Shown in pieces: positions 1 through 64,000 of a DNA stretch of 64,000 nt. The notes beneath the pieces were generated by a model. That model searched no databases, had not been told where the DNA came from, and saw nothing but the letters and a program-made list of their open reading frames with translations. The stretch is from assembly GCF_964204865.1 (NCBI RefSeq), contig NC_135253.1, positions 6,262,001 to 6,326,000 of the forward strand, written 5' to 3'. The translations under genes and the position numbers were made by a program. Within the stretch, counting starts at the first letter, position 1. Each line of letters opens with the position of its first letter. The DNA is from Styela clava (taxonomy: Eukaryota).

Positions 1-1201
1 GTGCATTTTCTGTGACTCGAAATAGCTTATAAAGCTTTAGACTTGGATGAACTGTTGAGGATAAGCGATATTATCAGAAGTTCTACGTAATTTGTAGATT
101 CAATTTAGTTACAACTCATCTTCGTTCACAAATCTGCCTTGGTTTGTGGCGGGCAACCGTTTGTAATTAGTTGGTCATATCATTTGGAAATTCTCGAATT
201 GCTTATCATAACAAAAAATTTTCAACGATATGAAAAAAATTAACCAGGCATAGTCTCAAGCAATCAGCAAAACAATGATTTTATATTATCATTCTTGAAG
301 ATGGCAAATAAAAACGACTCTTTCGTCGAAAATTGTCAAGAAATTTTAGCTATTGATTTCGAATCTGATACCCAGCTTTCATTACTGTAACAAAAATGGG
401 CGATTATTACAGCTGCGTATAATAATAATTTTGAAAATAGCATGTGCATAAATTAATATGATCTAACGCTTTCAGAACATAATTTTAAAATTTTGGTCGA
501 CGATTATTTGGAATTTTTTTAAGAAAATTTAGCATTATATTATCATTTCAATATTTAGTTCACGCAAAAATTACCTCAGAAATTCTGCATAATTTTGTGA
601 TAATGGATTCATATTCATTGGAAGCATTGCCACCTTGTACATAAGACATACATTTCGCCTTTATCAAGAACTATCTTAGTGAAGGATTTGAATAACTATT
701 GATCAGGAAATAATATTCAATAAAAAAAACTTATTTTTAGGAATGTAAATTAACTTTACTTCCGGCTTATTGCAATTTTTAAATGAAAATTTGATATATA
801 TGTTGTGTATTAGCGTTATAAAATAATACTATGATTTTCAAACGCAGTCAAAGTTAATTTATATGTGTCACTGACCCAGTACAAGCGTGTATGACGAATG
901 GTTAATCACCATTGACGCTCGCGTCGAAAAGTTTTGAGTGCATAATAATGACAGCAAAAAAATAAAAGGGTATTTCTTAGCCAATCGCTCACTGTGAGAT
1001 TTTTCACTGTTACAAATATACAATATTAGAACGAAAAGATCAATACAGATAATAATTAAGTCAATTAATATGACGAAATTCAACGTTCAGTATATCTTCT
1101 TCAACTTGGTTCAATTTAAATTAACTTTCCTAATACTTGAATTGTCGCTTGAGTTATTGTAACCCTCTGTATAAACCTATGTGTATTTTTGTAATTTTCA
1201 G

Positions 1202-4200
1202 GTATTATTGACAGAGGTGATGGCGCAGGCTACGCCAACTTAGATGAAACCAATATTCCAAATCCTTTTTGGGAAGATCATACTTCCCCTATTCCACAAC
1301 AACTTGGGGATCCGAGATGTGGGTATATCGAATTTCCTGGCAATGGAGAATGGAAATCTGGCGCTTGTGGCGCAAGGAGAAAATACATATGTTCCTATGT
1401 GCCAAGTATGTAATGTACTTATTTCAAGTATAGGCATCCTAAAAAATAGAAGCAGGAAAATTCTCTTGATGAAAAGAAAGACAGCCTTGATAGTAAAACT
1501 TATGTTTTTGTTTCAGTGGATATTCAACAGCGAACCGCCGCCAAAAAGCAAATAAGATGTCACGTGTGCCATGGAGAATCTTCAAATCAACGATGTAATG
1601 CCCGAGGAACAGTTTTATGTCCACCAAATGCGGTAAGAAGTGACAAACGAAAGGATATTTTTAGAAAACATTTGATATAAAGTGGATATTTTTATATATG
1701 TTTTCTAAACTTTCAAGCGTTATTGTAAAACAGGGTTCTTGCCAAAACGAGGTACGAGTTGTCAATGGAAAGAAAACAATTACTAAACGATGTAAACAGA
1801 CGAGAGCGTGCATGAATAATTTTCTTCAAAATTCAAAAGCGATGTGGCTCGAGGCTCAATGTAAACCCGGAAAGGGAAAGGGAAGCAGTGTGTGTAGATG
1901 TTGCTGCGAAGGAAACGGATGCAACGCTGAAGAACTGCCTTGTCTAGCAAGTAAGCATTTTAGGGTCAAAAAAGTTACAAAAGGAATATATGGTTTAGTG
2001 CATGAAAGACTGATTAGATCAAACAGTTTTTTTTTTCTGTTGTCTTCCATTTCGTCCATAATGACCTTGACTTACTTTGTTCGCACCGGTTCTATAGAAC
2101 CGTCTCGCGGAATTTTATGAGTTAAGCGAACCGGTTGGCATTAATGGTTACTGTCAATGTTCTGCTTGTAACGCAACCGGCTGAAGAATATGACTTTTGT
2201 GAAGGAACCGGCTGACAAAAAATTTGAATCCCACCACTGGATATATTCGTGATTATGCAATGACCTATTGATAAACTATTTTTGCAGAGGGGTGTGATCC
2301 TATACGAGTTCCAAAAGATGGACGTATAAAATGTACAGATCAGTATATGGTTGGATCCCTGTGTACGTTTTCTTGTGATTTCGGATTTAGCATTCAAGGA
2401 AGTAAAGCAACTCGATGTACAGGAGAAACAGGATGGACATCACCCGTACCTGAATGCATACGTAAGTTTTGGTTGTCTTCGGGATTTTTTACTTTGCGTA
2501 TTTTAATTATTAATTGGGAAATTAAAGCAACAGCTGAGGCATCTAGTGACATTGGGTTTCTTTGACCCAACTTTTCACGTCGTCCGGTTGATGTACTAGA
2601 TTGCATATATATATATATATATATGTTGTCTACTGATTACCTCAAAGTTTTTGATCAAAGTTTGTTCAATTCTGCTCACCTTGTATGTCAGTGTTGATAT
2701 GGTGGATTTAGTGCACCGTATCATGTCATATCTGCTACCAACTAACTAAATCTGTATCTTCTATCTAAATATGTATCTGTATCTGCATATTCTAGTTTCT
2801 TTGTAGTAGCCTATAATCTTTCAATTTCGAAATCAGTTCTTGTTGCCTGACGTTTAACCAACTTACTTAAAACTATACATTTGATGAATGACAAGTTCAA
2901 TCAAATTTTTAATTTCTTGGAAACACTTGAGCACAATCAGTTAGATGCCAAACTGCAATTACTCTTTTTATTAAGGTACGCAGTGTGCACCAATCATGAC
3001 AGCACCCAAAAATGGGAGCGTTGCATGCACTAACATTAATTTTGGTGCATCGACGTGCAGATTTAAATGCGACTACGGATATTATCTCCGAGGACTTTCT
3101 CTAACAACTTGTCTTGGAACTTCTCGATGGAGCGTTGAACGTCCAACCTGCCATTGTGAGTAAACATTTGAAGAATAGAATGGTGAATTTTTTCAGCTGC
3201 TAAATGACAAAAATATTGATTGTATATATAAGAAAATAATCCATTCGTATTTTACCATTCGCTTTTGAAAATCATTTAGAATGTCCCTTGCTTTTAGTGA
3301 TAACGTGCGATAGACCCCTAAAACAGCCAGAGAATGGACGAATTGTCAATCGAAGCCCGGGAATATTTGGTGAAATAACAACATTTGAATGTGTCGAAAA
3401 ATATTTCATGGTTGGAAATCCAGGGATTCGATGCACGGATAGAAATTTAGATGGAATCGGCGAATGGACAAATAAAGAACCAACATGCAGACGTAAGTGC
3501 ATAGATTCTCAGATAATATATACCATTGCAATTTAAAAACTTGGCAACTTGTTTATGTCGAAAAACTATCGATTGAATTGATTGAGAAAAGAACGATCTA
3601 TGTTGTCATGCAATGATTTTGAAAACTAATTAGCTCTGGTTTTACTGTTGTCTTATGAAGATCAATATATTTTGTTTTTACGTAGTTCGGTTTTCAAAAC
3701 ACGCACCGTAATAAATGATGATGAATTGGCCCGTGACGTCATTTCATAAAAATAAATTTGATAGGTTTCATGTTTGACAATTAAGAAAAATGTGCAAACA
3801 GCATGCGATTAAAATAAACGTGGCGAGTTGAGGTTGTTTTCGATATACACTGTCAAAAGTTCTGAAAAAGTTCGGTACTCGGCACTAGGACCGATGTAAT
3901 TCAGTGATGTGAGTTGATTTGAAATTTTGATTGAGAGCATTTGAATGATCAGATAACAGGTTTCTGTGTAGGTCGCATAGGCTATTTTTGTACTGCGTTT
4001 AGTCATTTGACCTTCGCGTCCTTTACTTTGATCATTGCTCTCTTGCTTGTATTCAATCTTTTCCGGGCTTGGCTTTCTCACCAAATATTTCACAGAGAAA
4101 GCGCTAATCGAACTGTGTTGAAAAGTGGTTTACCTGTACCAACGTCGTGTCCCTGTAATGAAGCATTGCTCTCTCATTATTCATAATCTATACGCGTGGC

Positions 4201-7200
4201 GTAAAATAAAGAGATTTGGTTTAAATATTGGAAATTGGCAGTTCTTTGATATTTACAGCTAATAAAGTCTTTTATTTTATCTAGTTATACAATGCTCGGC
4301 TTTAAAAAAGCCGCTAAACGGGAGAGTAAATACAACGACTCAAAACAACGAAGTTGGAACGCTGGCAACATTTAATTGCAATGAGGGGTACTTTCTAGTG
4401 GGCAACCCTACTTTAATTTGTGAAGGTCCTACCAAGATTGGTTTTGGTAAATGGAGCGGAAAAGAGCCTAAATGTGCAGGTTTGTATAAATCATTTTGTC
4501 TTTGTACGTGTTTACTGAGTTTGAATGGGTATAGTTTATTGATCTTCATCGACTCACAGGAGAAAATGTAGACCCTAGGTCAAACGCTTGGATTTCATTG
4601 TACTTCAATTGTATATTTATTGGATTTACTTGTGTACTTCTGATCTGAGGAATGAATATGTTTAAGATTTCGCATTCACATGTTTTTATAGACATCTTTT
4701 TTTTCTCGTTTAAATATGCAATTTGAAAAAAAAAAATAATGTGGCGTTTCATAACAAAATATCCAGTACTTCAGTTTTCAGAAAAAAATCTTTTGTGTGA
4801 ACAATGTTCTTGATGTTATCTTGTTTTTCATCCAGTTATCAAATGCCCAAAAGTGACTGCACCTATCAACGGAGAAGAAATTCAGTCAACAACATCGACA
4901 CCACGGTATGGAACTGTGATCACCTTCACTTGTAAATTTGGATATTTTCGAAATGGGGCTGAAACGTCCATCTGCGTTGATCAAAATGGAGATGGGAAAG
5001 GAGAATGGACGAATAAAGTACCTACATGTAAACGTACGTGAACTAGAACGAACACCTAGATAAAGGTCGCGTCGACCGTTGATTGATTGAGTGACGCGTC
5101 ATCAGTCGCCGCGACCGTACCTAGGTGTCGCTATATAGGTAACCCCGTACACTTGCAAACATTTGTTGTCGCATTGGCATTTGTACAACAGATTAACCAA
5201 GTCAAATCATGTTTTGATTCATCGTTTTAATTTTAAAGCAATTGTACATTTGAAAAAAAGTTGTGCATTTATTTCAACACGATAGCTATTTTTCTTAGAG
5301 ATCGTTTGCCTGCCAAATTTGAAGCCACCAACCAACGGTCGATTTGTCCGGAACGGTGGTTCAGCTTTATCAACGACATCCGAGTTCGCCTGCGATCGGG
5401 GATATTTCCTCTTAGGAACTTCGAGAATTACTTGTCAGGATGAAAACAACGACGGCGCTGGAGAATGGAGCCAAAGTTTGCCAACATGCAGACGTGAGAT
5501 AATTTTTATTTATGCTGCAGAAAATCTGGCGCTTTATTTCTATTGTAATATATTATTTTTTCAGTTAAAATACGTTTTGTTGATTTAAAATTTTGAAGCC
5601 CAGATCTTGGGTATGACAAAGATATTTGATCACATACTTTAATATTACCTAATATCACATACGTTAACGTTACCTAACCAATAAATACATCCGAAACCAG
5701 TTTCAATGAAGTATGATTTTTTTAAATTATTTTTTTAATATGGCCATTTTCATCTCTATCGTTTTCAAAAAAAAATTATAACATCTGGAATTTTTTCTAG
5801 AAATTAAGTGTGAGCCGTTTTTCGGTGTTCCAAGTAATGGTGGAATGATTTGCTCAAAGGAGAATGATTTTGGAACAAATTGTCAGTTTTCGTGTGATAC
5901 CGGATTCTTTTTGTCTGGATCTACATCATCATCATGTGTTGATGACAACGGAGATGGTGTGGGCGAATGGAGAAATCCAGTACCCACTTGTGAACGTAAG
6001 TATTAGCATACCAACATTTTAATTACACTGTTGCCTATGCCTACTATGGTGTTCTAATCAAATGTTCTCTCTACTAAGTCTATACTTGAATATTCGCACC
6101 TCAAACTTTTCTATACAAATACCAGATGAAAAAAAGATGATCAAGTTGTTTATTGCTGATGATTTGATTTATGCAACAAGTCTCGCGCCCCTTTACCGTA
6201 TATCATGTTTAAAAGTACTACTAAACTTCTGTTCAATTTTAGCAATCGTATGCTCTTGGCCACTGAGTCCTTCGGCACATGGAAGTGTTTCGTGCTCGGA
6301 GGAAAATTTGCACGGATCGGAGTGTGAATTTAAATGTGAAGAGGGTTATTGGCTGAAAGACTCTGATCTTCTTGTATGCGAAGGAGACGGCAGCAGAAAA
6401 GATGGAAAATGGTCAAGAAATCCTCCAATCTGTTTTGGTAGGTATTACTATTAGCAATTATATTGCCTGGTTTAAAGAACAGTACAGATGGAATTTATAA
6501 ACAAACTCATATTTTGTTAAGAAATTAACTGTGACAGACCACTCATGCCACCGGAATTCGGATCAGTATCTTGTGACAACAGACAAAAGTTTGGATCAGC
6601 ATGCACATTCTCTTGTGAGACAGGTTACCATCTTGTTGGCGACTCTAAATCTGTTTGTCGTGACGTCGATAATAACGGGAAAGGTGAATGGAGTGGAGAC
6701 AACCCATCTTGTAAAGGTATTTTAACTATTTGAAGAGTTATTTAAAGTTAATTATTATATTCGTTAGCTTTCGTGTTGTACAGCATTCTAATTCAAAGGT
6801 GTTATCATTAAACAGAATCCAGTTGTCGCCCGTCATTTAATGAAATCAAGTTTGGAAAAGTTACCTGTAGTAATGAGAATGGATATGGAAGTTTATGCCA
6901 ATTCCAGTGCAATCCGGGATACAAGTTGAGCGGAGAGGAAACTGTTTCATGCGGCGAACCAAGAACTGAATTACGAGCTACATGGAGCAGCGTTAAACCA
7001 AAATGTGAAGGTGAGAAACGCTTCTTAAATGAAACGTTGAATTACTCAAAACTTAAGCCTCACCGTTTGTTTGTGAGTAAACAAACAACTGTTCAGGATG
7101 CTTGATTATATTATGGATATAACGTAGACATCATAAATCATAGCACTAAGCAACATGCAGTACAGCGAGAGAGAGAAAGAGCGCAACAGTGACATCAAGC

Positions 7201-9710
7201 AACATAAATAAAGTATTACTAATGACGTCATAAATATCATCTTACACCTACTACACATAGCATTAACAACAAATTTATATTACTATATTTCATAAAGTAC
7301 GTCGATGTTCCGAACCGAAAAATCCAGTCGGTGGAAAAGTGATCTGTAGCGATGACTCAGTGCTGGGAAGCGTATGTACGTTCTCATGTGATGCTGACAG
7401 ATATCTCAATGGAAAAGGTAGAAAGACATGCATAACTGAAGATTCCAACCCCGGGTCTGATGTAATTTGGAATGACCCAGATCCTATTTGTCAGAGTAAG
7501 TTGATTGTTTTCATAAAACAACATACTGACACTATAGTTAAACTCTATTTATATCTGCATTTGAGGCTCACCAATAACTTGATATATTTTTGAAAATATT
7601 TAATTTTGCACAAACGTTGAAAACGATTTTTGATCTACATTATAACGTAACATGTAATTAAGCAAAAATGGAGTTATATAAAATAGTATTTTCAAATTCT
7701 ATGTATTTCAAACTGTTGTTGTGACTTAGTGATCACCTGCAAAGAACTGGAGTCAACTTCCGACCTTCTCACTATTAAATGCACCAACTCCCAACTTTCC
7801 CTCGGTACCGTCTGTGCATTTGATTGCAAGGAAGGATATTCATTAGTCGGCAAAGGAGTAACTCAATGTGCAGAACCGACTTCCCGAGATGTAGGAACTT
7901 GGACAAATTCTCTGCCAACTTGTCAACGTAAGAGCATTTTTCGACAGCAAAATATTACAGAAATTAGAATTGTAATACTGAATACATTTGCTAATATATT
8001 TTGTTTTTTCAGGAATAAAATGCCAGCCAGAAAGTTTAAGTCCGTTGAACGGAACTGTGGAATGTACCGATGGAAACTTCTACGGTAGCGTATGTACTTA
8101 TCAATGTGGTTACGGTTATATTTTGATTGGAGAAAGTACTAGAAAATGTCTAGAAGATTCAGCCTGGGACAATTTAGAACCGGAATGCGCGAGTAAGTAG
8201 AAAATTTCTTAAGTTTTAAAATATATGGATTAATTAGTATTTAAGAAGCTATGTTTAATTTTGCTAAATAAATAAATATATATATCTATATTAAGATCGT
8301 GCGATGCTTATTTAATCACAAAATGAAGGCATTAGGTTTATATATATATATCACATTTAAATATATTATTAATGATAACATGCATTTATTTAGCATTGAC
8401 CTGTGACCCCCGCATTGAACCGCCTGAGAATGGAATATCAACTTGTTCCAATGAGAATTACATTGATAGCGTTTGTCAATCATTCTGCAACTTGGGTTAC
8501 AATATGGATGGAGAAATTAATAGTCGATGTGTTATAAAAGACGATGGAACCTTGAAATTTACAAATCCGTCTCCGACCTGCACACGTACGTCATTTTTCC
8601 CCACAGCAGATTTTTCATATTGCATGCCCTTGTGACTGTGGTTGCACCATATTAGTATTGAACAAAATGCCAGTAACTAATCATCTGACTACAATAGAAA
8701 GGCAATAATAGAAGAAAACATGCGTAATTACGCTTACAGATTGCGTTTCAACGTCAACTGACATTCTAAAATGTACCCAACTGAGGCAACTCATAGAATC
8801 GCGAGTCTCGCGCCAATCGGCTCGTAATGGACCATAACTACCATCACCAACGGCATATGTAGTTCCAACAAATCTTGGCCTTCCAGTCGTTGTCTATTCC
8901 TTTGCTTTAAGATAGATATACTTTATTTCTCAACGAGGGCGCGCGACCTTGAATTGTCTGACCTAAGTTTCATAACTTCTGACGGCGCCCTAAGAACAAG
9001 AACAGATACATAAAATAAAAATAAAAAAATAAATAAAAATAAAACGGCGCTCCAGAAGTGTGTGTACCAATATGGAGGTAACTAATTTTGTTCAGAATTG
9101 GAATAAAATTATGGCTTAACCCTAACCTGGTACACACACTACGGGAGTACCCTTCTAACTACCAGCATTGTCTGTCTGTTCATTCAATAATAGTGAAACC
9201 TTCGTTACAGCAATCTATTGTGATGACATTGCCGGCCCAATAGAAGGCGGAAATATACTATGTGGGATCGGACAAGGAAACGTTGAGGGTAACAGATACG
9301 ATACAACTTGTTTCTTATCATGCAGTAATGGGTGGAGAGCTATTGGGTCAACTCGAACAACTTGCCTTGGATTTGGAGAATGGGAAGGCGGTATTGGAAG
9401 ATGCGAAAGTAAGTCAGATCTAACTTTAACGTAACCACGCAGCGATGCTGAAACTTTCAACATCTCGATGATCTTAATTCACATACTTGTTAATTAATAT
9501 TTGTTTATTTATAATTCAGAAATAATCTGCCAACCTCCACTTGGAAAACCACCTAGGGGAGACGTTGCTTGTAACAGACGAGAAAACATACCAGGAACTG
9601 CTTGTACTTTCAAATGTAATCCGGGATTACAACTGGACAGGAATGGAGTAATAACCTGTCAAGATAATGGCCAATGGAGTAGTGAACCTCCTGCTTGCGT
9701 ATCTCCATGA
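1202..9710 (+). CDS. Secreted selectin-like mosaic protein: C-type lectin (C-terminal half) + Ly6/uPAR three-finger domain + 16 CCP/sushi domains; 5' end probably upstream of the window
   Basis: GT-AG exons join in frame. 1202-1405: GIIDRGDG...FW...PRCGYIEFPGNGEWKSGACGARRKYIC (CTLD end). 1517-1632 and 1734-1950: IRCHVC...CRCCCEGNGCN (LU domain). CCP exons, all phase 1: 2288-2461, 2976-3155, 3298-3492, 4285-4479, 4836-5033, 5299-5493, 5801-5995, 6243-6437, 6522-6716, 6816-7010, 7298-7495, 7730-7927, 8013-8192, 8394-8585, 9211-9408, 9520-9710 (stop TGA). AATAAA at about 9948. Confidence 0.9.
9046..9151. mobile_element. Short MITE with ~24-bp terminal inverted repeats (family E)
   Basis: GGCGCTCCAGAAGTGTGTGTACCA ... 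TGGTACACACACTACGGGAGTACC. Related sequence recurs at ~25139-25360, 33663-33772, ~38890-39037, ~49695-49875 and ~52206-52394. Confidence 0.7.
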
Positions 9711-10774
9711 ATAGCTTCATTTCTAATCTTTTTTATTTATAATCTGAATTGTATCTGTTCAACATCGTTGATAAGTTCGCCAAGCAAATCTTTTAGTGTC
9801 AACTCAAGAAGGCAGATGCTATTCACTGTGCTCAGTGTGTCTGCTTTACAAATATATTGTGTTTTTGTTCTTCATAAACCTTCGTAAATTTTAAAAATAC
9901 TTCAAAAATATTTCATAGATAAAAAATTGTTGCACATAAACCATCTCCAATAAAAATTATTTTACAGTGATGTTTCATGGTGTTGTTATACGATATTGTT
10001 CCATCCCTAAATTTGCTGTGAGTCAGAACCTACTGAGGTAACGTTATTGTCAACGAAGTTAGGAGTCGTCAGTATTTGGTAGTTTTTAGTAAAACTGTCT
10101 TTCATTGAATTTGATTGAATTTTCAATCGCTTAGTGAAGCACTATACAACAGGTGAGAACGATGCACTGACAAATTTACACTTTATGCGCCATTACCACA
10201 GTAACAATTTTCAAGATAAACTTTTTCCACTTGTTGAGTTTTTAAAAATTATCACTTCTGAGAAGTAAGAAGCACTTTTTTTTTATATTTCACCTCTCAC
10301 ATTCCTACGTCGGAAACCGAAAATTTGACTGATCTATCCGATTTCGGTATGAAATCACTATATAATAAGAACCATACACTGAATTTTGGTTACATCTACT
10401 AAATGTAAAAGCTTAACGGAATGTGGCCGTATGTGTCGTCCACACGGTGCGCTGAATTGTTCGCCAATATTTTTAGTCCAAACGCGACATCACGATGTTA
10501 GTCTATGACCAGACAATCAACTCCAATTTATCCTTGTTTCGTACATGCGAAATAAACAAGCCAAATTCACAAGCCTACAATACGCAACTATAAACATGAG
10601 AAAGTTGCATCGCGTCATTAAAAACTCGTCCTACACTTGGTCGACACAAAATGATTGTTGACAACTCAGATGGAGACAAAAATAGATTACGGATAACAAC
10701 AGAAGATATTTTTTAATGTTTCCAAGGTCAACTAGTCAACCAATGAATTAAATATATTTTATGAAGCTGCTAAC

Positions 10775-11053
10775 CAGTGGTTTTCAACATGGTACAAAAA
10801 TATCCTGTGACCCATTAACTTTCACACGCAAGGGAACAACTACGAAAAAAAAACAAGAAATTCTTTTTGCAGAGATAGGCACTTCCACTTTAAATAATTA
10901 GAATGAAAATTACCATTAAGTAGCGAAAAACAGCATAATCATTTAATTGTAAATAGACCAAATTTTATTATTAAATCCAACAGAATTGTAGCCCATCTGG
11001 AAATGTTTCCGTGACCCTGCAGTGGGCCATGGCCCACTGGTTGATAACCGGTG
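10775..11053. mobile_element. Degenerate hAT-type MITE
   Basis: CAGTGGTTTTCAAC at the left end and GTTGATAACCGGTG at the right; TSD degraded. Confidence 0.55.
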
Positions 11054-11359
11054 TACTAAGTTCTTGGATTGCGCTTGCTACCGCTTACCACACTTGCTAC
11101 CGCATATGAAAATATTAAAGTTTGTAATAATACTTTCATAAGGTTTACTTGCAAACAACAAAAATAACCAGAAAAACGTTATATTTTGCAAAGTAAAAAA
11201 CTTTGACTCAACACTGATAGTTTAACATACACTATTATGAAAGCAAACAAGAAAATATTTGTATCAACAACACGTATAAAACAAAATTTGAAAAACATTT
11301 GTATTATCAAAATTCGCATTTGATCGCAAGGTTATAAACTCTTTATTCTATTACAATTC

Positions 11360-14300
11360 TTAGTTCTCGTCTGGAAACGTTCTTGCATCTTTGTTTATTC
11401 TTGTATAAGATGGTTCGACGGTTTTACTTTGGTCTTCGTATATATACAATTCTATAACACTGGGCACTGACTGCGATCTGAAAACAAAACGATTTAAATA
11501 TATTAACTGACATTCGATAGAGTGTGGAATTCAATGTGCGGGTATTCTAGCGAATGTGGATTGTAACTATATTTCAACACTCGGACGAAAACCGGAAACA
11601 CACGTCATCAAAATTAGTCGATAAGAAGAACGCTATGCACAAGTAATCTAAGGCTTGAAGCTGTCGCGATAAATCATAATCGTGGAAATAGCTAGAATGG
11701 CATATTTCATTGAATTCAACATACTAATAAAAAGTGGTTAAATAACATTGAAGTCCATAGTTACAATCCACATTCGCTACAGTATATATGTATATTAACA
11801 AGGTTGTATCAGATTGTAATGGAATAAAAAGCTCCGAATATTCCATTCGAAAATTAAAAGTGATGATAAAAGTGTTGCTATCAAATAACTAAACGATTAT
11901 TTTATGTGGAAATTCACATTTCAATACGATATCTCTTACGTTACCTTCATTAACGAACTTTTACAACAGTTTTCATACCTCTTTCTACGATTTTTTTCTT
12001 CCTCTACAAATTTTTCAACTTCGCCCTCTTCATCCCTACGTCTGTCTTCTTCTCTTTTGGAAGCACATCGAGTTCCTTCTGATCCGTAACAAGTGCATTC
12101 CATACCAATTCCTTCAAACATGTAGGGCCATCTTTCACATTTTCCGCGAATTGGGCAAGTTGTCATTCCTTTAAAATTACAAACAAGAGAGCAATGCTAA
12201 AATATAATAATATATTTGTCCGTATTATGGACACAATAATCAAATGACCAAAATAGCAACCGCAAAGTAAGCCAATGTTAAAAAGCAGTAGCTTACCGAA
12301 TGTTATAAAGATTTGTACCGAATGTCATAAGATAATGTGCCCATTAATCAGAAATAAAACATTTGGGTTGCAAAGTCAGGTCTCAACGAAATCGAACTTC
12401 TAACCTTCTCCCGTCTCTAAGTACTAGAATTTGACAACAAATTGACATTGCAAAGGCTACAAAACAAACCAATATAACAAATTTTGAAACTCGCGTTCTT
12501 ACTTCTAGCAAAAATTAATAAATCACTAACCCAAAGGGCATGCCGAGCAAGATTGCGAATCATCTTCTTCGCAAGGTATTTTAGTTGGTTCTACTTCATA
12601 CTCCTCTTCCATAAAATTGATTGGAACAGTTTTAACTAAAAAAAATGTAGCATATATGTATATATAATACAAACGATATTTATCAGCAAGGCATTTTCAC
12701 CATTATGCAAACTAGTTATTTTGTTGAAAGTTACTCGTGTTGTCGTGTGACATTTATGTTTTTATCCCCGTGCATTCGAGTTTGTGTTGGCGAGGAGGTA
12801 CAATAATTATCGGCTGATAATAGTATAGTTTATCATGCATATCAGCAAAAATTCGTCTGCTTTTAAAGCGTTCAGTAACGTGGACTCGCGGAAGCTATGT
12901 AGTATCAAAAGAAACTTTTCAAGTTCATAGGCGATCAAATTATCTGCACAAATTTGAAATAACTAATACGCATGTAACTTACTACATTTGCATTGATGTC
13001 TTCCAACTCTTTCCCCAAAACATGTACACTCACATGATGAATCCGTTGTTGTTCGTTCCCAGGTTTCACCAATGGCATACATCATACCAGTCTAAAGAGT
13101 ATTGCTGGGTATAGTTTGAATTAACGCATAAAAGCTAATGAAGGATTTACGAATGATATATCTCGCAACCAGGGAAACAAAAACTTGATAAATTAGCGCA
13201 TTGTTTCGTCTTCTGTTCCACTAATAGTAATTCGGGGTGTGTGATATAGCGCTGAAATATAATATCTATGAAATAATGCAAAATTGGGTTCAAAACATGG
13301 GAATTTTCGTGTTTTTCAATTTTTGAATGGCGATTTCAGACAACATGCCTTCAGCCAACAAAAATGATGGCCCGAAGGCGTTTATACTTTTGTTTTGGTA
13401 TAACGTTGTATGCGTCATAGTAGTCTGGTACAAAACTGAAAAAATATATATATATTCTTATTCTACGCTTTACCGAAATGCAATTTTTCTTCGCCCGCCG
13501 CATTCAATAGAATATCATAGCGATAAACAATGTAAACCTCAGAATTCCTAAGTCTAAAAAATACGGAAAACAATGTCTAAAATCCTATTGTTTGTAAATT
13601 TAAACATTTTTGACTTGCGAATCATTGTTACAATTGGAAAACCAAAAATAGTATGTAATATTGGGTATAATGGACGTTTTCCAGGCCCTACAACCCTGAA
13701 AAAATCTTCCCTATATATACTTTCTCATTGCGAAAAATTTTCAAAGCTGATTTGGAATTTTTTTGGAAAGTTAGCGCTTACAAACTGGCACACATGTTCA
13801 AAACTATCGTTTTTATTCAAAACAATAAACCACGTGCCGGTTATAGGTACTGATAGCTAATTTTAGGCGAGTCTTTCGCAGTTTTTACGTTATCAATTTA
13901 TTATTATTGTAACTGAACTAAAAGCCCTTGAAAGACATAACGACAATTAAGTTATTTGATTCACAACTATTTTTAAAAACACAACTAAAAACTGACGGAC
14001 AACACGGAGAACTACCGAAAAGAGGCAATGTTTACAACCACGCTTGAATATCTGTCTGAGCGAAAGAAGAGTCTGAGCGGCGGCATAAAATCCAATTGTT
14101 ACGTCATTGTTAACTTATTTCTGATTTGTAATTATTACGGAAATAAACAAGGAATTTGATGCTCGGGATGGTCCCAATCGTCATTCGAATGTCCACCCCA
14201 ATAGGGCAAAAATTACACTTGTTCAGATGGTTTATCATCCAGACGGCTAAGCTTCTTGTTTCAATTAAACCAGATTTAAAATAAAACTTTACCTCTTTAT

Positions 14301-15130
14301 CTTGACACTTCTCTCCATCGGGACATATATAAGACCTAGCACAACATTCGTCTGAAACGGGTTCGCATCCAGGTGGATAACTCATTGGAGGACATCTGTA
14401 GCAAAAGTAAATAGTAAAACAGATATAAGCAAAATGGCTATTACGTATTTATGAGCAAACAATATGCCTCATAATAGGACTCGATCATTTATACAGTTCA
14501 GAAATATGAATTATGGGATGAGAGAAATATTAAAAAACCGCTGCCTATACCCTGTTATACACATTGACGTACCTGTGAACACATGCCCCTGTAGGAATCC
14601 AGAGATTTTTAATTTTTCGAATTACACATGTGCATTCAAATTTACATGGCGATCCTTTGAATGTGTGGCCGAACGTTTCCCCTTCTTCGTAGTAGGTTGA
14701 ATTCACGTAGCATTTTTCTGCATCGATTTAACAAATATAATTGAGAATATAAGGATGATTGATGGCAAAATACAATTGAATGTTATCTCACGCTCTGTTC
14801 AAACTAGACTCTCAGTGATCTCCAAAACGATGTAAAAAATTGATCCAAAGTGCAATCGACATATCAAAATAACTGTAACTGTTATTGCGGATAACTGGCT
14901 TTTCAGAAGTATGATTATTAATAATTCAAACGTAGCTTTGTTAAAGTAGGAAATTTCGCATAAAGAATAACCAAAAATGTTATATAAATATATATATTAT
15001 GATTCGTAATCTTTAAATAACTAACTTTAATATAAAATTCATGCTTACTTTGAGCGTCCGATAGCTTCATACAGCACGTTGACAACCAGGTTGAAGAAAA
15101 AGTCAATAACAAAATTGTAAACGGAAACAT
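11360..15130 (-). CDS. Small secreted cysteine-rich protein (~283 aa): signal peptide, VWC domain, FN1-like domain, acidic linker, second Cys-rich module, RRKR site, C-terminal peptide
   Basis: Seven GT-AG exons with matching phases: 15130-15049 (MFPFTILLLTFSSTWLSTCC...), 14717-14573, 14395-14293, 13091-12983, 12635-12531, 12168-11979, 11477-11360. Total 852 nt, in frame. Minus-strand AATAAA at 11342-11347. Confidence 0.8.
11543..11784. mobile_element. MITE with ~28-bp TIRs ending in TA (Tc1/mariner-like)
   Basis: TATTCTAGCGAATGTGGATTGTAACTAT at 11543 and ATAGTTACAATCCACATTCGCTACAGTA ending at 11784 (26/28 inverted match). Lies in the last intron of the VWC-FN1 gene. Confidence 0.75.
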
Positions 15131-20400: not shown

Positions 20401-23400
20401 TACTTTGGTTTGTCAGGCACTGAATTATTCGATAGGATTTACATGTTTATCCTGGGGGAGAAAAGCCGGTAAGATGACTTAACCCAGGGTGGTCCAAACC
20501 TGGGCCCGCGGGCCAAGAGTGGCCCGCCGCTTTATTATCTGTGGCCCACAGCGCATTTGCGGGATGATGAACAAAAAATGCAATTGGTGTTGTTTCGTCA
20601 TAAAAATAACCAGAAAATCATTTGACGTATTGTTACATCACTAATTTCGCTTAATTGACTAGTGTTATGGCCAGCTGAGGCAACTAGCGAAGTTGAATAA
20701 TGTGCTTGGCTAGTGTAAATTGTTAACTGGCTTTCTATTTCTATCTTTTTGTTCGGGAATATATATATTCGGGTGGTTTTTTGCAACCAGCCTAAATAGT
20801 ATTCAAAAAATGCTGCCTTTATGTCAGAAAATTTAGTGATTACCCTTTATCTTATATGAGTGTGAAAAGAAAGATGACCAATTTAAACATATTTTTGACT
20901 GGATATGGGAGGAAAAATACCACATGGCTTGCTTCATGTGTCTGAAGGTTACCAAAATGTAGATATAGTAAATTATTTACACGTTCTAGCGAGTTTTTTG
21001 GTGGTTTGTACTGTTTACCTATTTTTGGCACTATTGTGGCCCGCGATTGATACAAAAATAATAGTATGGCCCGCGAGGCCGATAACCTTGGACCACCCTG
21101 GCGAAACCATTTGGCGAACACCGGCCTCTCGTTCGTTTACCATGCCATGTCGGGTATGGGATTAGTAAGTTATTTGTTTTTGGAAATATGGACTTGATGG
21201 TAGAGAAAGCCGTCACCGACCAGCAGTTATGTGAACCACCCTACGGCGGCGAGGAGTCCAGCAATCCTCTCGCACATAACTATCGCTGCATGGTATTCAA
21301 ACCTGCGAATTCACGCAGAGTAATGGCCAATGAGCTTCCTTTGGGTTTTGGCAAAAAATCCCTCCATCCTGCATTCATATGAAATGTATGAAACTGTATT
21401 TTTCAAGATGCTCAAGTAAGGAATTAATGCATATTATTAAGGTAGGCTATATTAAAATTGTCAAATTGTGTAGTTTTCAAAGAATGTTTAATAGGATTGG
21501 ATAGGATTTATCCCGGGGGAAAAGGAAAGCCGATAAGACAACTTAACCATATGGCGAACCACGACCTCTCTTCCTGTTACCATTCCATGTCGGGTATGGG
21601 ATTAGTTAATTATTTGTTTTCGGTAGCATGGACTTGATGGTGGAGGAAGCCGCATATAACCATCCCTGCATGAGATTCGAACCTGCGAACCCACGCAGAG
21701 TAATCAGAGTTGCGGTGACAAGCGTGTCCTAATGCATTGCATGATGAGCCACACGTGATGAGCGTACATTCATTTTATAACGAAGTTCATCGTGAATCGA
21801 TTGTCCTTGTTTATAAAATATACTTGAGCGTTAATTAATTGCAAACATTTTCATCTGATTAGAAACAACAATCACATTGGATATTTTTCTCTTCTGTGAT
21901 AGATTTCATGGGAAGAATCTGCCACTGTGGATCCACAGAATGAGCCTGGGGTGACCAATCATGAGAAATTTCTAACGGTATCGAATCTAGTAGGAACAAC
22001 CTCAGATGAAGTTACTTCAGATATTGTAGAAATAGTGACATTACAACTGCTTGAAAAATTAGTAGGTAAATGTGTATTAGGATTAAATTATACATTACAA
22101 TATGAAGAGTCTTCTAAGTCGAATCTATTTTCCCATTGGTCTCGAACATTAAAATATTGACAATTTTTGTATTTACCATGAGCACTAATGATATTCTTTC
22201 TATTTTTGGCAACATCAATTTATTTGTGGGTGCGTTGTGGGATGGCCTAGCATAGCAGTTGCCAAACTTTTAGTTCGTGTGGTGCCAAATTATCAGGTGA
22301 AAAACTCATGGCGCACTCACTCGAAATAAATTGCTGCCTTCAAGTAACACTCAATTTTGTGATCTTTATAGTGTACTTTATGCTTTTTTAAGTTTGTAAA
22401 CATGCAGGCCTAAAGAATAAAAGCAATGTTAACTCTCCTTCCTCATATCTGCCTGAGTTTCCTTTGAAATCTAAAAAAATCACTGATGTTCAATAAACTC
22501 TGTTCGACAGCTAATTTGATTCAGTTATTCGTATATATTTGTTTGTTGTTCCAACCACCCCATTCCTCAACTTGATTTTTCAATTTCCAGGAATCTTGTC
22601 AAAACATGGACATAAACAAGACAACATTTGCTATGTTCAAGTGAATGTATCTGAAATGTCGCATTATAAACATATCAACAAGGTTTATACTCAATTTTTC
22701 AAACAAAATCCTCCTGCTAGAGCATGCATTGGTTGCATCAGTAATTCCAACAGAACAGATAAAAAGACAATTCTTCAAATTTATTGCATATCATGCAAAG
22801 AGCATTCCAGTAAGAAATGTATGCATGTTCAAGGATTATCCCATTGGGCACCTGCAAATATAGGTACATTTCAATATTCTTTTTTGACAAGCAATACTGA
22901 TGGTCAAGCGAATCTATATATGTACAAATAGGATCTGAACCTGATGTTATTTAAATTAAATCATTGAAACTTTTCTTGTGCCCACAAAGTAGAAACATAA
23001 ATATTGGTCTATCGAGTTACCAGTAAGAATTTTAATATACCAGTAAGTAAAAACTTCAGTTATGTGAAATTCACTAATTTTAATGCTTCAAGACTCGCGA
23101 CAATCGTTATTTATTATCACATAATTTCACGGTATCCTTCTTTTTAGTCTCATAACTTCAGTAATCACTCAGAGGTGAATACGCATTTCCTTGCTTTGAG
23201 CAAATTTTCTCAAAAATTACGCATTAACGCAGACTGGAATCAACGCATAATTTAGCAATTTGTTCATTGATAATATGTCACACTAAATTTTGGTTTTCGA
23301 AGCAATGCAAGTGTTAATTCTTATCAATCTTTTTTAGGACCTTTTAGTCAGTGTGTTCTGGTGGATGATTTATTATTTGTGTCAGGAACTATAGCACTTA

Positions 23401-25580: not shown

Positions 25581-28456
25581 TCATTTGACTGGTAGTCTAT
25601 GTCTAGAACTAGCACAAATGTGCCCACATCCTGTTGGACATCTGCCTTTGCTATGTGGATAATTAAACCAATCTTTCATGCAATCTATATGTCCACCATG
25701 ACAACATCCTTGGCACCATGTATACAAACTTTTCACAACTAACTGGCACAGTGAACATTTTATACCAGCCCCCATGCCTGCTTGTTTATGATCATTATCA
25801 GAATGTTTTGAACAACTCCATGGGTTTGCAGTTGGCATTCGTTTATGGCAAATTCCGCAACAGGTGTTTAGGGTGGATGAAGTGTTCATATTCTTTATGG
25901 AAGGAAGTGTGCTTAAATTAATAATCTCAGTGAAATGGTTCCATAGTTCATAACGACTGACCAATTCCAGATATGAATTTTGCCAATGTTCCAGCAGATG
26001 ATCGTCAATAGGAAGACTTATTGAGGGATAATAATGACCCAGGACAATCATTGTACATGTTATAATTTGAATGTTGTTGCCGTTGCTTATCATAGACTCG
26101 TACATTGAAGAAAGCAGTTCAGTTTTACGACTGATTGACAAAGCAGGGTTTTCATAGGGTCTGGTGTAAACCACAGGAGATACTGATAATTGTTCATGTG
26201 GAGATGAAGATTGTGAATGCAGGGAGACAGCTGAAGGGCCAGAACTCCGACTATTATTCTTCTTCCTCCATTTTTCAGGGTTATGATTCTGCTGTGATGT
26301 TGAAGATGGAATCATAACAGGAACGGCAGTTATTAGTTTCTCTTCTTCTCCACTTATAGCTGGATCAAGCTGGTTTTCAAAACCATCAGTGGCAGTTAGT
26401 ACAAGTCTCTGTTTAAAAGCTTCAGATGGAAGTGTAGCATCACTGATTGTATCGCTAAGAGGATACCAATCCTGATCCATGTATCCTTCTGGTCCTGAAG
26501 AAATACCACCGTGATGACCTTTCCCAAAGTCCTCACTCAAATCATACTCATCAGAGTAATAACACTCTTGTTCAGATGTAGCATGGCCCTTTGCTATATC
26601 TGTCAGGTAATGCTCAGTCTCTGGATCTGAGTGTTGTTCGGATTCTTCTCCGTTGCTTTCCCCAGTAACAATCCCATTTTTCATAGACTCTCTCCCAGTT
26701 TTAAGACTGCTTATTTCTGCTGAGTTTGTATGAAATGTAGTAGAGTTGCTTCGTTCTGTCTTTTTTGTCGAAACTCCTTCAAAAAACCTTTCCAAATATC
26801 TCCATATGTTTGCATCAATGCTCATTTGAAGATCATCACAAACTTTTGCATTGTGTAAACATAGTTTATTAAATGCCATTCCTTGTAGCTTGTATTGCTG
26901 GGCGGCCTTGATAAGACTTGAAGGATGTACGTCCGAGGAAGTAGGAAAGTCATCTTCTTTGATAGGAGTGATACTGTGTATCCCAAGCTCTGATTTAGCA
27001 TTTAGAAATCGAGCAAATTTAATATTCATACTACTAGTAGACAATGTGTTTTGTACCCACGAGTTTGTATCCAGTTTTGGAGCGACCCCAACAACAGTTC
27101 TAAAACCAAACCGTGTCATTCCTTTAGTCTTAGTACTAGGTATGGCATCATATGAATTTGTACTATCAGTGGACGCATGTCCTATATATCCTCTAGCGCT
27201 TACAGAAAGACCAGAAATGTTACAGTGTTCTGATGGGCGATGTGCATCTCTAATGGAATGTTGATATAGAGTCCCATCTTTAGAACATGAAAATAGAATT
27301 TCTGGATCATTTTTTTTCCACGCTATACCAGTTGTAACATCAGTGTGTTCTGTAAAATGAGCAAACGGCATGTATGGTCGTCTCATATCCCATACATTGA
27401 TAGAATGGTCCAGCATCATTGCTACACTTGCAATCTGTTCTCGTCGTTGCGTTCTCCACCGAGCCATGGCAACTAAAGAATTTGTTGGTATCACCATATG
27501 CTCAGACATTTTGTGATCTATCATATCCCAAATTTTGACTTTATTGTCTCTGCCTCCTGTTGCAATTCTCTGTTTATCTTTGGCATCCGGATGCCAATCA
27601 ATTGAATAAACAGATCCTTTATGGGCTATGAACTGCATCAAACAGGAACTTGTGTTTCTGAAATAGAAAATTATAATAATCAAACTTTTGTCATATGAAA
27701 CTAGCTTATATTTCTCGGTCATGACTTGAAAATTTGTTCAACTTGCAATGGTGTTTACATTTCATGATTAAATTCAACACGAAGACTTTTGAACCAAAAG
27801 CATAGAAGATCAAAACTGATTAATTCCAACTTTTAACAAACTTAAGGCGTAATTCACCTGTAATCCCAAACTTGAACAGAACCATTGTCAAACGATGCCG
27901 CAAATTGAAAATATTCATGAGGAGAAAATTGCACACATCGAACACCATCAGTTTTACTGGAGAAACTGGCAATACATTCCTTTTTTCTCATGTCAAACAT
28001 TTTCATTGTACAATCTTGAGAACCACTAAGCAATCTCCCAGGCTCAGAACTATGAAAACATACTTTTGTAACAGTCCTTTTATGATCAGTAAATATTTCG
28101 AGTTGTTTATTTCTGCCTGATGCACTTAAGTCCCATGCAATGATAGCTCCATTTGTAGCAGCAGTTGCGATTAAACTTTCATTTAAATGATTCCATGCCA
28201 CATCAGCACAGCTTAAATTGAGCCCTTGTCTTCTTCCGACTCTCAAGTTTATTTTTTCCTTAAAACAAGTGTCATCTACTGAATATATTTTCAAAATAGT
28301 TCGTCCAGCAACTGCTATCATAGAGCTGTCTTTGTTTGCTGCTAGCATGTTGATAGGTCCACCCACATCAACATACATTGTGCAATGTTGGTTTGCATAT
28401 GTTACTCCATTTGAGATATTAGTGCCAAAATCTGATACTATTTGATTTCTCTTCAT
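25581..28456 (-). CDS. WDR24: GATOR2 complex subunit WDR24
   Basis: N-terminal WD40 repeats (LNLSCADVAWN, HKRTVTKVCFH, WDMRRPYMPFA) and C-terminal RING (WCQGCCHGGHIDCMKDWF...CPTGCGHIC). Two coding exons, 28456-27858 and 27657-25581. A further splice acceptor (CTTACAG) lies at 28501 in the 5' UTR. Confidence 0.95.
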
Positions 28457-28717
28457 TGTCTATACCAGTATGCGGTATTCAATGGATTTAATCAATGGAC
28501 CTGTAAGAGATAAATTTATTCAGTCAATTATTTTTTATCTCAGAGTCTTAATTTTATTCAATTATAACGTATCAATGTAATGTTTTTGTGAATTGACCAA
28601 CTACAGAATTTGGTACCATAATTTCATCAAGAATAAAACCATATTCTGACTACTGTAAGACCTGTCTATCTGAAAAGCTAACCCACAATTCCTGTCAGGT
28701 GTCATTCTGCAGAAATT

Positions 28718-60211: not shown

Positions 60212-60787
60212 TACTATGGAGTGATGCAACATATGAGAAAACTTCATTATCTGAGATAAGCTCAGAATAGTCAAACTCAACCGTTTTGTACAAAAACACA
60301 TCAAAGAGGAACCGCCATTGTATTGGTCGCAAAGAATATTTGATTAAATGATACGGTTCATAAAAATCCATTCCGTGCGTCACGGGTCAGGAGTCTCATG
60401 ATGACAAGATCAGCTCTGTGGATATTCCAGGGCACATGAGGAATGACTTTGCAATTCACAAAAAGTATATTGCCAGCGCATATCGTAACACCGTAACTAG
60501 TTACCGCCACGGGAGTCCGCAATTCATCATGACTACGCACAACACTACTGATACGAAATTTCAGTAGCCGATGTCCACTACACCAGTATTTGGTCACTGC
60601 ATGCGCGAGACCGAGGCGCGGTCCCTGTGCCTACTTTGCGCTAAATAAAACACCCGCTATCACACTGGCGACTGAGCTATTACCAGTACTTCATAAATCG
60701 CTGAACTGGCAGCGGTACCGTACCTGGTGCACCAATATTTGCAAGGAATTGAATGCCCACCCAGGAATTCTAAATAGTAATCTTAAC

Positions 60788-61684
60788 ATGGAGCTTGGCA
60801 AACTCTTAAAGCGAATGAAGTACTCCGGGCCCACCAAACCAGCAGATTTAAACTTACTAAATGAATTGTGCATACATTATGTATCATCCATTCCATATGA
60901 AAATCTTGATCTTTTTGGAGGAAAAAAGAGAATCCACGATCTGCCTACAATATATGGAGAAATTGTAATGAAAAACAGAGGCGGGATGTGCATTGAATCA
61001 AACTCTCTTTTACACTGGATGCTGGGCAAAATTGGATTTGATGTAACTATGTGTATGGCATATAGTTTAGATGGAAATGATGTTGTGAAAATTGTTAATC
61101 ATATGGTACTGCTTGTAAAGTTTGATGCAGATGACATATGGTTGGTAGATGTGGGATACGGTGGTTTGAGTTTTGTATTTCCATTGGAAATGAAAAAACT
61201 AGCACAGGAACAAAGTCAACCAAATGGTGTTTATATGATTACAAAACATGAAGGAATTTACGCTGTTGAAAAGAAGCGGCAAGTACAGCTAAGTAAAGAT
61301 GGGCAGAAGGTTCCATCCACACGTAATAATCTAAATCAGCCAATTAGTAAATACCAAACTAGCAGAGATTGGGAATTGATGTTTGTATTTCGGATAGAGC
61401 CAAAGACTTTTAATGACTTCCACCACGCAAGTGAATATGCTAAGACTTCTCATCCATGGTGTACTAAAAACTCGACAGTAGTCCTTCAAGATAGAGAACG
61501 TAGAGTTTTTCTTGTTGGGGACACGCTTGTAGAAAAAAGGTATGTAGACCCAATGACAGTCAGAGTTGTTGAAATTCAAAAATATCACAAGACTGAAATA
61601 CCTGAGATTTTAAAGAGTAAGTTCGGAATTGTCTTAAGCTATAAATTGCAGCCAGAGTCGCAAATGACATGGTTTATGATGTAG
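60788..61684 (+). CDS. Arylamine N-acetyltransferase (intronless, 298 aa)
   Basis: IPYENLD, NRGGMC (catalytic Cys), NHMVLLV (His) and WLVDVGYG (Asp). First ATG of the ORF is at 60788 (MELGKLLKRMKY, like the NAT N-terminus). AATAAA at ~61900. Confidence 0.93.
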   Translation: MELGKLLKRMKYSGPTKPADLNLLNELCIHYVSSIPYENLDLFGGKKRIHDLPTIYGEIVMKNRGGMCIESNSLLHWMLGKIGFDVTMCMAYSLDGNDVVKIVNHMVLLVKFDADDIWLVDVGYGGLSFVFPLEMKKLAQEQSQPNGVYMITKHEGIYAVEKKRQVQLSKDGQKVPSTRNNLNQPISKYQTSRDWELMFVFRIEPKTFNDFHHASEYAKTSHPWCTKNSTVVLQDRERRVFLVGDTLVEKRYVDPMTVRVVEIQKYHKTEIPEILKSKFGIVLSYKLQPESQMTWFMM

Positions 61685-62476: not shown

Positions 62477-63151
62477 TCAACCTTGTGGGGCATCAGCGCT
62501 TTCAAGCTTTCGTATTTCCTCTTTAAAATTGTCAATATTTTCTCGAATTGCCTTCAATCTTTCTTTATATTCTCGGATTTCATTTTGCACTTGTGTTTTG
62601 GCAGAATGTAACTTCTCTATAGTTTCCTTCTCTTTTTCCTCAAAATCAGTTTCATGTTTATGTGCACCCAAAGTCAATTGTCTTGTACTTGTGAGTAAAG
62701 AATGCATCATGGCAGTTGGATCTTGAAATATCATTTCATCATACCATTCTGATACAACAGTTTTTTTACCAAGCATAATATTAGTTTCATTTTGAAACAG
62801 TTTTATAGGATGATATAATGTGATTGCTCTCTCTACTTGATCATGAAAAAATATCTTGATAACGACTTCAAACTCACCCCATCCAGTCTCCGTTATCTCA
62901 TATGGTGGTTTTGTTACAACTCTCAATGGATTTGCATAACTTTCGTGTAGTTTAAATTGAATTTTTTTGACATATACTGACATGTCTTCATTTTTATATG
63001 GTTTAACATAAACTGTCCAAGTATGTGTGTGTCCATCCTCTTCTCTTTTTTTTCCAAAATATCGAGCTAGGTTTCCAAATACAATGGGTTTCACAATGCA
63101 TGCACCTTTGACGCGACCACCAGACTCTGTTGCGGGTTCTGAACGATTCAT
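62477..63151 (-). CDS. YEATS4: YEATS domain-containing protein 4 (GAS41), intronless CDS
   Basis: [51 protein letters not shown] and a C-terminal coiled coil. Confidence 0.97.
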
Positions 63152-63911: not shown

Positions 63912-64000
63912 GCCTGACAGATTCAACCTAATATTTTAATATCTATGATATAGGAATAAATAGTTTCTCATTTAGATTCTGAAACATGTATAACTTTACT

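Follow-up and report, generated by a model that had tools for sequence, protein, structure and literature searches.

A soluble mosaic of C-type lectin-like, three-finger, and complement control protein domains in the ascidian Styela clava

The stretch of Styela clava DNA considered here, called the window, is composed of 64,000 nucleotides of contig NC_135253.1 (assembly GCF_964204865.1, positions 6,262,001 to 6,326,000, forward strand). A gene at window positions 1202-9710 encodes most of a protein made up of a C-type lectin-like domain (CTLD), a three-finger domain of the Ly6/uPAR type (LU), and 16 complement control protein (CCP, or sushi) modules. Judged by sequence comparison, this CTLD-LU-CCP gene is a conserved ascidian offshoot of a large, mostly tunicate family of LU-(CCP)n-VWA proteins. 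The Styela protein does not belong to the selectins, the complement regulators, or SVEP1 on the features tested. Its layout suggests a secreted, soluble rod that may act as a tether within the extracellular matrix of ascidians, be it tunic, mucus net, or blood-sinus matrix, a proposal whose chances are about even. All of its domains are of known fold, and the protein is already in RefSeq under an automatic name. The open-licence literature of PubMed Central and bioRxiv yielded no paper describing CTLD-LU-CCP proteins or the LU-bearing tunicate LU-CCP-VWA family; the original prediction, made from the sequence, had likewise not recognized the combination from any characterized family. Older Boltenia and Ciona papers, outside that literature, are said to treat "selectin" and "Ccp" genes.

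The gene model has 19 exons on the plus strand, and every intron is GT-AG. The spliced product is a single frame of 1202 amino acids ending in PPACVSP-stop, and the alternative frames hold 45 and 97 stops. The predicted splicing of CTLD, LU, and 16 CCPs with this end is reproduced, as the product is identical, letter for letter, to residues 106-1307 of S. clava XP_039248480.2. Used as a query, the third exon matched a single protein, from a cluster that includes XP_039248480.1 and XP_039248480.2. The domain order of the RefSeq protein is signal peptide, CTLD, LU, 16 CCPs, and stop. Recovery of the upstream part, proposed earlier, succeeded at the protein level only: RefSeq supplies residues 1-105 (the hydrophobic leader with the signal peptide and the first CTLD half), and these have no match within window positions 1-1201, which places their exons upstream of the window; the window itself holds the C-terminal CTLD half. 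All introns are in phase 1 except a phase-0 intron within the LU domain; phase 1 holds for each of the 16 CCP exons and for the two borders of LU. Databases name the protein SVEP1-like or, in RefSeq, complement receptor type 2-like, with only Lectin_C and Sushi domains given. The exons are as follows.

1202-1405, plus strand: C-terminal half of the CTLD (RefSeq residues 106-172); Lectin_C E 0.12 as a single exon
1517-1632, plus strand: linker and start of LU (Cys187, 190, 199, and 207), from the gene model
1734-1950, plus strand: remainder of LU with 10 Cys, the loop III helix insert, and CRCCC...CN...C, from profile, fold, and contig
2288-2461, plus strand: CCP1, 6 Cys (Pfam Sushi)
2976-3155, plus strand: CCP2, 6 Cys (Pfam Sushi)
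3298-3492, plus strand: CCP3, 4 Cys, calcium-loop-like motif at 3438-3464 (Pfam Sushi, motif scan)
4285-4479, plus strand: CCP4, 4 Cys, loop insert kept and motif lost (Pfam Sushi, motif scan)
4836-5033, plus strand: CCP5, 4 Cys, motif at 4979-5005 (Pfam Sushi, motif scan)
5299-5493, plus strand: CCP6, 4 Cys, motif at 5439-5465 (Pfam Sushi, motif scan)
5801-5995, plus strand: CCP7, 6 Cys, motif at 5941-5967 (Pfam Sushi, motif scan, splice 5995-6243 in all four runs)
6243-6437, plus strand: CCP8, 6 Cys (Pfam Sushi, splice contigs)
6522-6716, plus strand: CCP9, 6 Cys, motif at 6662-6688 (Pfam Sushi, motif scan)
6816-7010, 7298-7495, 7730-7927, 8013-8192, and 8394-8585, plus strand: CCP10-14, five phase-1 exons (Pfam Sushi; splices 7495-7730 and 8585-9211)
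9211-9408, plus strand: CCP15, the penultimate module, with an "ICGIG"-type loop common to all four orthologues (orthologue comparison)
9520-9970, plus strand: last exon, with CCP16, stop at 9708-9710, 3' untranslated region (UTR), and AATAAA at 9949; no transmembrane (TM) or GPI tail (contigs)

Four sequencing runs of one study, guessed to be RNA and aligned to window positions 1-14000, give contigs that jump GT-AG introns. At least four introns are backed by contigs, each in all four runs (5995-6243, 7495-7730, 8585-9211, and 9408-9520). A 2786-nt RNA-type contig has exactly the length expected from CCP4 through the 3' UTR (2198 + 588). The second LU exon is covered by an RNA-type contig with 69 and 52 extra letters at its sides. 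The CTLD-LU splice (1405|1517) is not among the joints listed and is based on the RefSeq model and three relatives of the same domain order. Four further runs under the same species label contain almost none of the gene's words and have no bearing on its expression.

The end of the protein is well defined. Two contigs span 9520-9970 unbroken over the stop and end just past the AATAAA; contigs thus reach the 3' UTR from the last CCP, and the transcript therefore ends without a membrane exon. A hydropathy scan finds no hydrophobic 19-residue stretch past residue 40 (maximum 0.97), and no additional VWA, TM, LU, or CCP exon was found elsewhere in the window. The absence of a TM or GPI anchor, as first claimed, agrees with these results and with all four orthologous proteins, which stop after the last CCP. 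The description as a soluble CTLD, three-finger, and CCP mosaic is likewise supported by the gene model, the transcript end, and the hydropathy.

The LU domain occupies residues 184-281 (window 1552-1943) and has 14 cysteines, rather than the 13 counted at first. It is missing from the precomputed annotation and Pfam domains of both the Styela protein and the LU-(CCP)n-VWA family. The domain matches LYPD6 by phmmer (E 1.2e-4) and reaches the Pfam Toxin_TOLIP cut-off (22.4 bits versus 21.2). A profile of 57 sequences has LYPD1 as its nearest solved structure (E 9e-8), and an AlphaFold model built from this alignment has a pLDDT of 87 and a pTM of 0.80. All four Foldseek hits of the model at E <= 0.001 are LYPD6, LYPD1, and LYPD6B, with LYPD6 at the top (E 3.5e-5). 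VIA-align, run against 48,161 chains, ranks LYPD6B highest (Z 10.2, rmsd 3.6, 88 aligned); six hits reach Z >= 8, and every one of them is an LU protein. The three-finger fold predicted for this module is borne out by the model and its matches. CD59, the reference named originally, gives way to LYPD6/LYPD1, which are nearer by phmmer, by VIA-align (Z 10.2 and 8.4 versus 7.8), and by Foldseek (E 3.5e-5 versus 2.9e-2).

Three other attempts at structure were less informative. A single-sequence AlphaFold model of CTLD-LU-CCP1 has a pLDDT of 33 and is not used. An ESM Atlas search gave nothing usable for LU (best 0.77, unnamed) and only generic Sushi clusters for CCP5-7. A predicted complex of LU with the VWA domain of Styela paralogue P0170 (with Mg, without alignments) has a score of 0.01 and a mark of 0.34.

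LYPD6 is a single GPI-anchored LU domain with a conserved NxI loop, and its NSI loop has a role in LRP6 binding. The Styela domain shares with LYPD6, LYPD6B, and LYPD1 (PDB 6gbi, 6ib6, 6zso, and 6zss) the three-finger fold, 12 aligned cysteines, ITKRC, and V-C-x-x-CC-x4-CN, at 24-31% identity. It differs in a 12-residue insert in loop III, a helix in the model, and in two extra cysteines, Cys267 and Cys281. It is also an internal module of a large secreted protein and has no GPI tail. The NSI loop is not conserved, since NGK stands at its position in Styela, NGI in relative P0003, and GGR in relatives P0180 and P0181.

These features bear on one reading, a secreted signaling modulator. Here the LYPD6-like finger would bind a Wnt co-receptor, a nicotinic receptor, or a TGF-beta-type ligand, and the rod would keep the finger within the matrix, with metamorphosis as one possible occasion. 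Ci-sushi (KH.C11.274, named p-selectin) would be the analogue; in the available text of two papers it acts in tail regression (PMC8495957, PMC13225635), and it is not tied to this locus. The closest solved structures favor this reading; the low identity to them and the replaced NSI loop argue against it and make it improbable.

The LU domain is defined by ten consensus cysteines ending in CC-x-CN, according to the accessible text of PMC6337849. All ten are present in the Styela domain, as seen in the LYPD6 alignment and in column counts over 162 segments. Among 155 LU domains with a readable C-terminal motif, Cys267 and the tail cysteine occur together in 114 and are both missing in 37; Cys267 occurs alone in 4, and the tail cysteine alone in none. 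Related rows in this count are not independent, and 30 more domains had no readable motif. Because the two cysteines co-occur, Cys267 and Cys281 probably form a seventh disulfide.

In a set of 1.84 billion representatives, 166 clusters match the LU domain at E <= 0.001, and the make-up of the family is drawn from the 150 clusters listed. Where these matches have other domains, LU is mostly joined to CCP arrays, VWA, EGF, and TSP1 domains, with single fusions to a globin, EF-hands, and an adhesion GPCR. Most relatives start with a hydrophobic, signal-like stretch. The 92 LU domains from proteins of at least 400 amino acids comprise 40 LU-(CCP)n-VWA, 9 LU-CCP without VWA, 15 other VWA, 4 CTLD-LU-CCP, and 24 others. 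Names looked up for 20 hits gave seven Ciona, Clavelina, or Styela clusters, two cut-off names, eight unnamed entries, and three non-tunicates (Holothuria, Batillaria, and Diadema). The echinoderm LU domains share the K-x-CKQ-x-x-AC-x-NN signature and do not have the extra cysteine pair. Since they carry this signature, the module would be older than the tunicates and expanded there.

The LU-(CCP)n-VWA proteins of Ciona, Clavelina, and Styela are auto-annotated only, with the RefSeq names "P-selectin-like", "E-selectin-like", and "SVEP1-like". The Styela protein shares with them the 14-Cys LU directly before 6-Cys CCPs, the phase of the architecture, the signal peptide, and the lack of a TM segment. 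It also possesses the C-x-N-N-x-x-Q-N helix of the 14-Cys LU family, followed by CCPs. The CTLD-bearing proteins differ from the family in having the CTLD, a block of 4-Cys CCPs, and a calcium-loop-like motif, and in lacking the C-terminal VWA, which is absent from all four of them and from the window.

Several other LU proteins have unusual partners. P0058 of Clavelina lepadiformis (300 amino acids, named cytoglobin-2-like) is made up of a signal-like leader, a 14-Cys LU, and a globin (Pfam Globin E 1.4e-17); a secreted three-finger-globin fusion would be odd. P0083, P0109, and P0142 join LU to EF-hand pairs behind a hydrophobic leader, another link between LU and calcium binding. P0131 of Diadema setosum (1115 amino acids) is an adhesion GPCR that combines an LRR, a GPS, and 7TM with an LU of the same subtype that lacks the extra cysteine pair. 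P0165, P0166, P0004, and P0171 are large matrilin-like VWA/EGF proteins with two or three internal LU domains.

Three further proteins among the matches listed have the same plan as the Styela protein: P0003 (CAB3266737.1), P0181, and P0180, with 20, 20, and 26 CCPs. P0003 presumably comes from Phallusia mammillata. P0181 and P0180 are probably from Ciona, given their EukProt source and 81% mutual identity. The two homologue searches were limited to lengths of 718-2288. All four proteins share one CCP pattern: two 6-Cys modules, a block of 4-Cys modules (4, 11, 11, and 17), and a 6-Cys tail, with the stop directly after the last CCP. Styela CCP3-6, 8, 13, and 15 have their top match inside this orthogroup. 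CCP15 is the clearest case, with scores of 183, 183, and 170 against the orthologues and 107 for the best other CCP. A quick LU tree (92 rows, 132 columns, proteins under 400 amino acids left out) groups the three relatives with an SH-aLRT of 95 and leaves the Styela row apart; orthology therefore rests on architecture, motif, and tail.

P0180 and P0181 have a 24-residue basic hydrophobic insert between CCP1 and CCP2 that is absent in Styela and P0003; it could stem from an alternative exon or from intron retention in the model. The same two proteins have a 10-residue insert at the site of the phase-0 LU intron. P0100 and P0121, which have no CCPs and are not counted as orthologues, may be composed of a CTLD-like piece and LU.

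Lectin_C is matched in the full Styela protein (E 2.4e-6, 28.7 bits versus a cut-off of 22.6), and the CTLD has 6 cysteines. The EPN/WND residues are the established calcium-dependent sugar chemistry of CTLDs. At the EPN/WND positions of the fish E-selectin-like protein P0191, the aligned Styela CTLD has IPQ/WKS, P0003 has KRN/WLL, and P0181 has EPP/WAL. EPN or QPD is found in none of the four CTLDs (P0003 being without its N-terminal part). A classical calcium-dependent sugar site is unlikely because the EPN and WND residues are replaced in Styela and its relatives. The term lectin in its sugar-binding sense is thus not supported, as both EPN and WND are missing from the Styela CTLD and from the three relatives as well.

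The protein resembles the E-, P-, and L-selectins in its N-terminal CTLD, its one small Cys-rich module, and its 6-Cys CCPs, whose extra cysteines match those of the fish selectin. These likenesses would suit a true selectin homologue, or a shed form of a membrane adhesion receptor with an overlooked TM exon. The differences are more numerous. An EGF pattern is present in P0191 and was not found in residues 170-290 of P0002, where LU stands for EGF; the CTLD has 6 Cys without EPN/WND, and there is no TM or tail. The orthogroup has 16-26 CCPs, a 4-Cys block, and calcium-loop-like inserts, and the 6-Cys CCP is the usual type across the tunicate LU family. Transcript contigs terminate in the 3' UTR, and in each of the four orthologues the stop directly follows the last CCP. 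A selectin or a receptor with a missed TM exon is therefore highly improbable and already largely refuted. The original view of a selectin with LU in place of EGF is not supported: EGF, anchor, and EPN/WND are all missing, and the junction of LU with the CCPs derives from the large tunicate LU-(CCP)n-VWA family.

All 16 CCP exons match Pfam Sushi (E 5e-12 to 7e-4), and the full protein shows 16 Sushi stretches. The curated cut-off is reached by 15 of them, with exon 7298-7495 at 20.4 versus 20.7. The count of 16 CCPs given at first stands, with one correction: 12 modules are of the 6-Cys type, and CCP3-6 have 4 Cys. Other single-exon Pfam matches (CUB_CDCP1, Sgo0707, cEGF, and others) fall short of the cut-off and were disregarded.

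Many middle CCPs of the orthogroup possess a loop insert, D-x-[DN]-x-[DN]-G-x-G-[ED]-W, between the penultimate structural cysteine and the conserved Trp. The Styela copies are in CCP3, 5, 6, 7, and 9. Of the 82 CCPs in the four proteins, 43 carry the motif D-x-[DN]-x-[DN]-G-x-x-[ED], compared with none of the 585 other CCPs examined. A first CCP set has it in 14 of 405 modules, whereas 200 shuffles average 0.19 and never exceed 2. Gly is at position 8 in 40 of 44 motif copies, and Trp follows in 35; the pattern permits Asn at position 5. According to the accessible text of Rigden et al. (PMC3123361), the later acidic ligand of Dx[DN]xDG calcium loops stands at a minimum distance of two residues. 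The CCP motif matches this sequence pattern, with its later acidic ligand at that two-residue minimum. It shares with the EF-hand and the integrin-type calcium blades Asp/Asn at positions 1, 3, and 5, Gly at position 6, an acidic residue two residues past the motif, and an extracellular setting. It differs in the CCP host fold and in having Gly at position 8, where the EF-hand has a hydrophobic residue; calcium binding here is putative. The words "sushi", "CCP", and "complement" are absent from the available text of this 2011 survey, and no paper linking sushi/CCP modules with calcium-binding or EF-hand-like loops was found in the literature covered.

The four proteins are polarized in charge. 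The CTLD has a net charge of +3 to +15 and LU of +4 to +9, and the remainder carries -19 in Styela and -80 to -115 in the other three.

Complement regulators consist of CCP modules only, of the 4-Cys type, and the C3b-binding surfaces of the vertebrate proteins are basic. The Styela protein has a CTLD-LU head, 12 6-Cys modules among its 16 CCPs, and acidic inserts. It is like factor H, CR1, and CR2 in its long CCP array and like factor H in being soluble, and all three are its best PDB sequence matches. A humoral innate-immune protein, factor H-like or an opsonin, is therefore to be weighed: its head would recognize self or microbial surfaces, and its CCPs would bind ascidian C3b or present the target to phagocytes. 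This reading draws on the soluble array of 16-26 CCPs, the PDB matches, and the RefSeq name complement receptor type 2-like. Expression of C3 in the Styela endostyle (available text of PMC9953650) and a Sushi+VWA gene that marks Botrylloides phagocytes (accessible part of PMC12212465), a gene not tied to this locus, point the same way. The PDB ranking, however, tracks repeat number and is silent on orthology; LU is nearer LYPD6/LYPD1 than CD59, the CTLD has no sugar-calcium residues, most CCPs are not of the regulators' 4-Cys type, and strongly acidic rods fit poorly with basic C3b-binding surfaces. An immune role is unlikely on balance, though a serious contender.

SVEP1 (polydom) is the source of the automatic name. 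It is similarly a secreted matrix-type protein with a long CCP array, but no VWA, EGF, pentraxin, HYR, or ephrin-like domains were found here. P0001, P0180, and P0181 have only Sushi and Lectin_C domains, and the window has no VWA exon.

The extracellular tether is favored over these readings because the head is secreted, both ends are conserved, and the middle block varies from 4 to 17 four-Cys CCPs. The layout is closer to factor H or SVEP1 than to a rolling receptor. The basic head, a CTLD without a calcium-sugar site plus LU, would bind, without calcium, either a protein or a polyanion (a sulfated glycan, for example). Each acidic middle CCP would bind Ca2+ through the D-x-[DN]-x-[DN]-G-x-G-[ED] loop that immediately precedes its conserved Trp. 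Ca2+ might then neutralize and stiffen the shaft or create repeated weak cross-linking sites. The conserved last CCPs would dock to a second partner. With a length of 3.5-4 nm per CCP, the array would fix a distance of about 55-65 nm. Head and tail together could thus tether or cross-link extracellular matrix or mucus. Such a protein may have arisen by exon shuffling from a tunicate LU-(CCP)n(-VWA) stock, a candidate direction.

Two papers give hints in this direction, and the available text of a further one, PMC10986139, contained nothing of use here. Oikopleura house proteins use CCP, VWA, and CLECT domains, and the available text does not mention Ly6/uPAR (PMC3390340). According to the accessible text of PMC9953650, the anterior part of the Styela endostyle is enriched for genes under the names SVEP1 and P selectin; the supplement of that paper gave no hits for "selectin" or "sushi". 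Neither the house proteins nor these genes are tied to this locus.

An alternative use of the same acidic loops is a calcium-chelating matrix or adhesive. The array itself would do the work, as an ion-bridged gel, an adhesive, or a mineral template, and the head would only anchor it. P0181 and P0180, with 12 to 17 motif-bearing CCPs and charges down to -115, would suit this role. Styela retains only 5 motifs yet both ends, which makes it a long shot.

Several results weigh against the tether and its calcium loops. The top-scoring match lies outside the orthogroup for 9 of the 16 Styela CCPs, and two changes are needed in the LU tree to join the Styela row to its relatives. The Styela protein lacks any VWA, collagen, or coiled-coil segment through which it could assemble. 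The motif is present in only 5 of its 16 CCPs, and its rod is far less acidic than those of the relatives. The motif repeats lie inside one orthogroup and are non-independent events, and calcium binding by the CCPs is predicted from a sequence motif. Asp-rich motifs of this kind arise easily, according to the available text of Rigden et al. (PMC3123361), and the Botrylloides phagocyte marker favors the immune role.

A broader and more tentative proposal is an overlooked ascidian secreted system built on the 14-Cys LU. The CCPs of the orthogroup would bind calcium and give the Dx[DN]xDG loop a new host, the CCP fold, with up to 17 copies in a protein; in tunic or mucus they would form a calcium-tuned spacer that runs from the CTLD-LU head to the conserved tail.

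In expression studies, many ascidian genes go by "P-selectin", "SVEP1", or "complement receptor" and serve as an argument for vertebrate-like immunity. The present gene and its relatives show that tunicate LU-CCP mosaics account for many of these proteins and that annotation misses the three-finger domain at their N-terminus. The LU domain is a defined, foldable module of about 100 amino acids and a candidate matrix- or glycan-binding unit. The motif raises the question of whether Dx[DN]xDG loops let CCPs bind calcium, a setting that does not occur in the available text of the 2011 motif survey.

Other features of the window are unrelated to the CTLD-LU-CCP gene. Short, high-copy intronic elements at about 2086-2230 and 9040-9157 have very high contig depth, at about 2086-2200 and 9061-9152, that does not come from this gene; inverted arms of 30 nt (9040-9069 and 9128-9157) make the second element MITE-like. 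A spliced, expressed gene lies downstream, tail to tail, on the minus strand at 11063-14450, with joints at 11477-11979, 12167-12530, and 12635-12983. Its product has short Cys-rich repeats and an acidic/basic C-terminal stretch, and Pfam gave no hit for the frame at 14110-14448. Pfam identifies five more genes or pieces, the second of which we take to be WDR24-like.

22515-22931, plus strand: RidA/L-PSP piece
25581-28459, minus strand: WD40 with C-terminal RING
60533-61684, plus strand: arylamine N-acetyltransferase
62477-63160, minus strand: YEATS protein
63426-63935, minus strand: Gemin6

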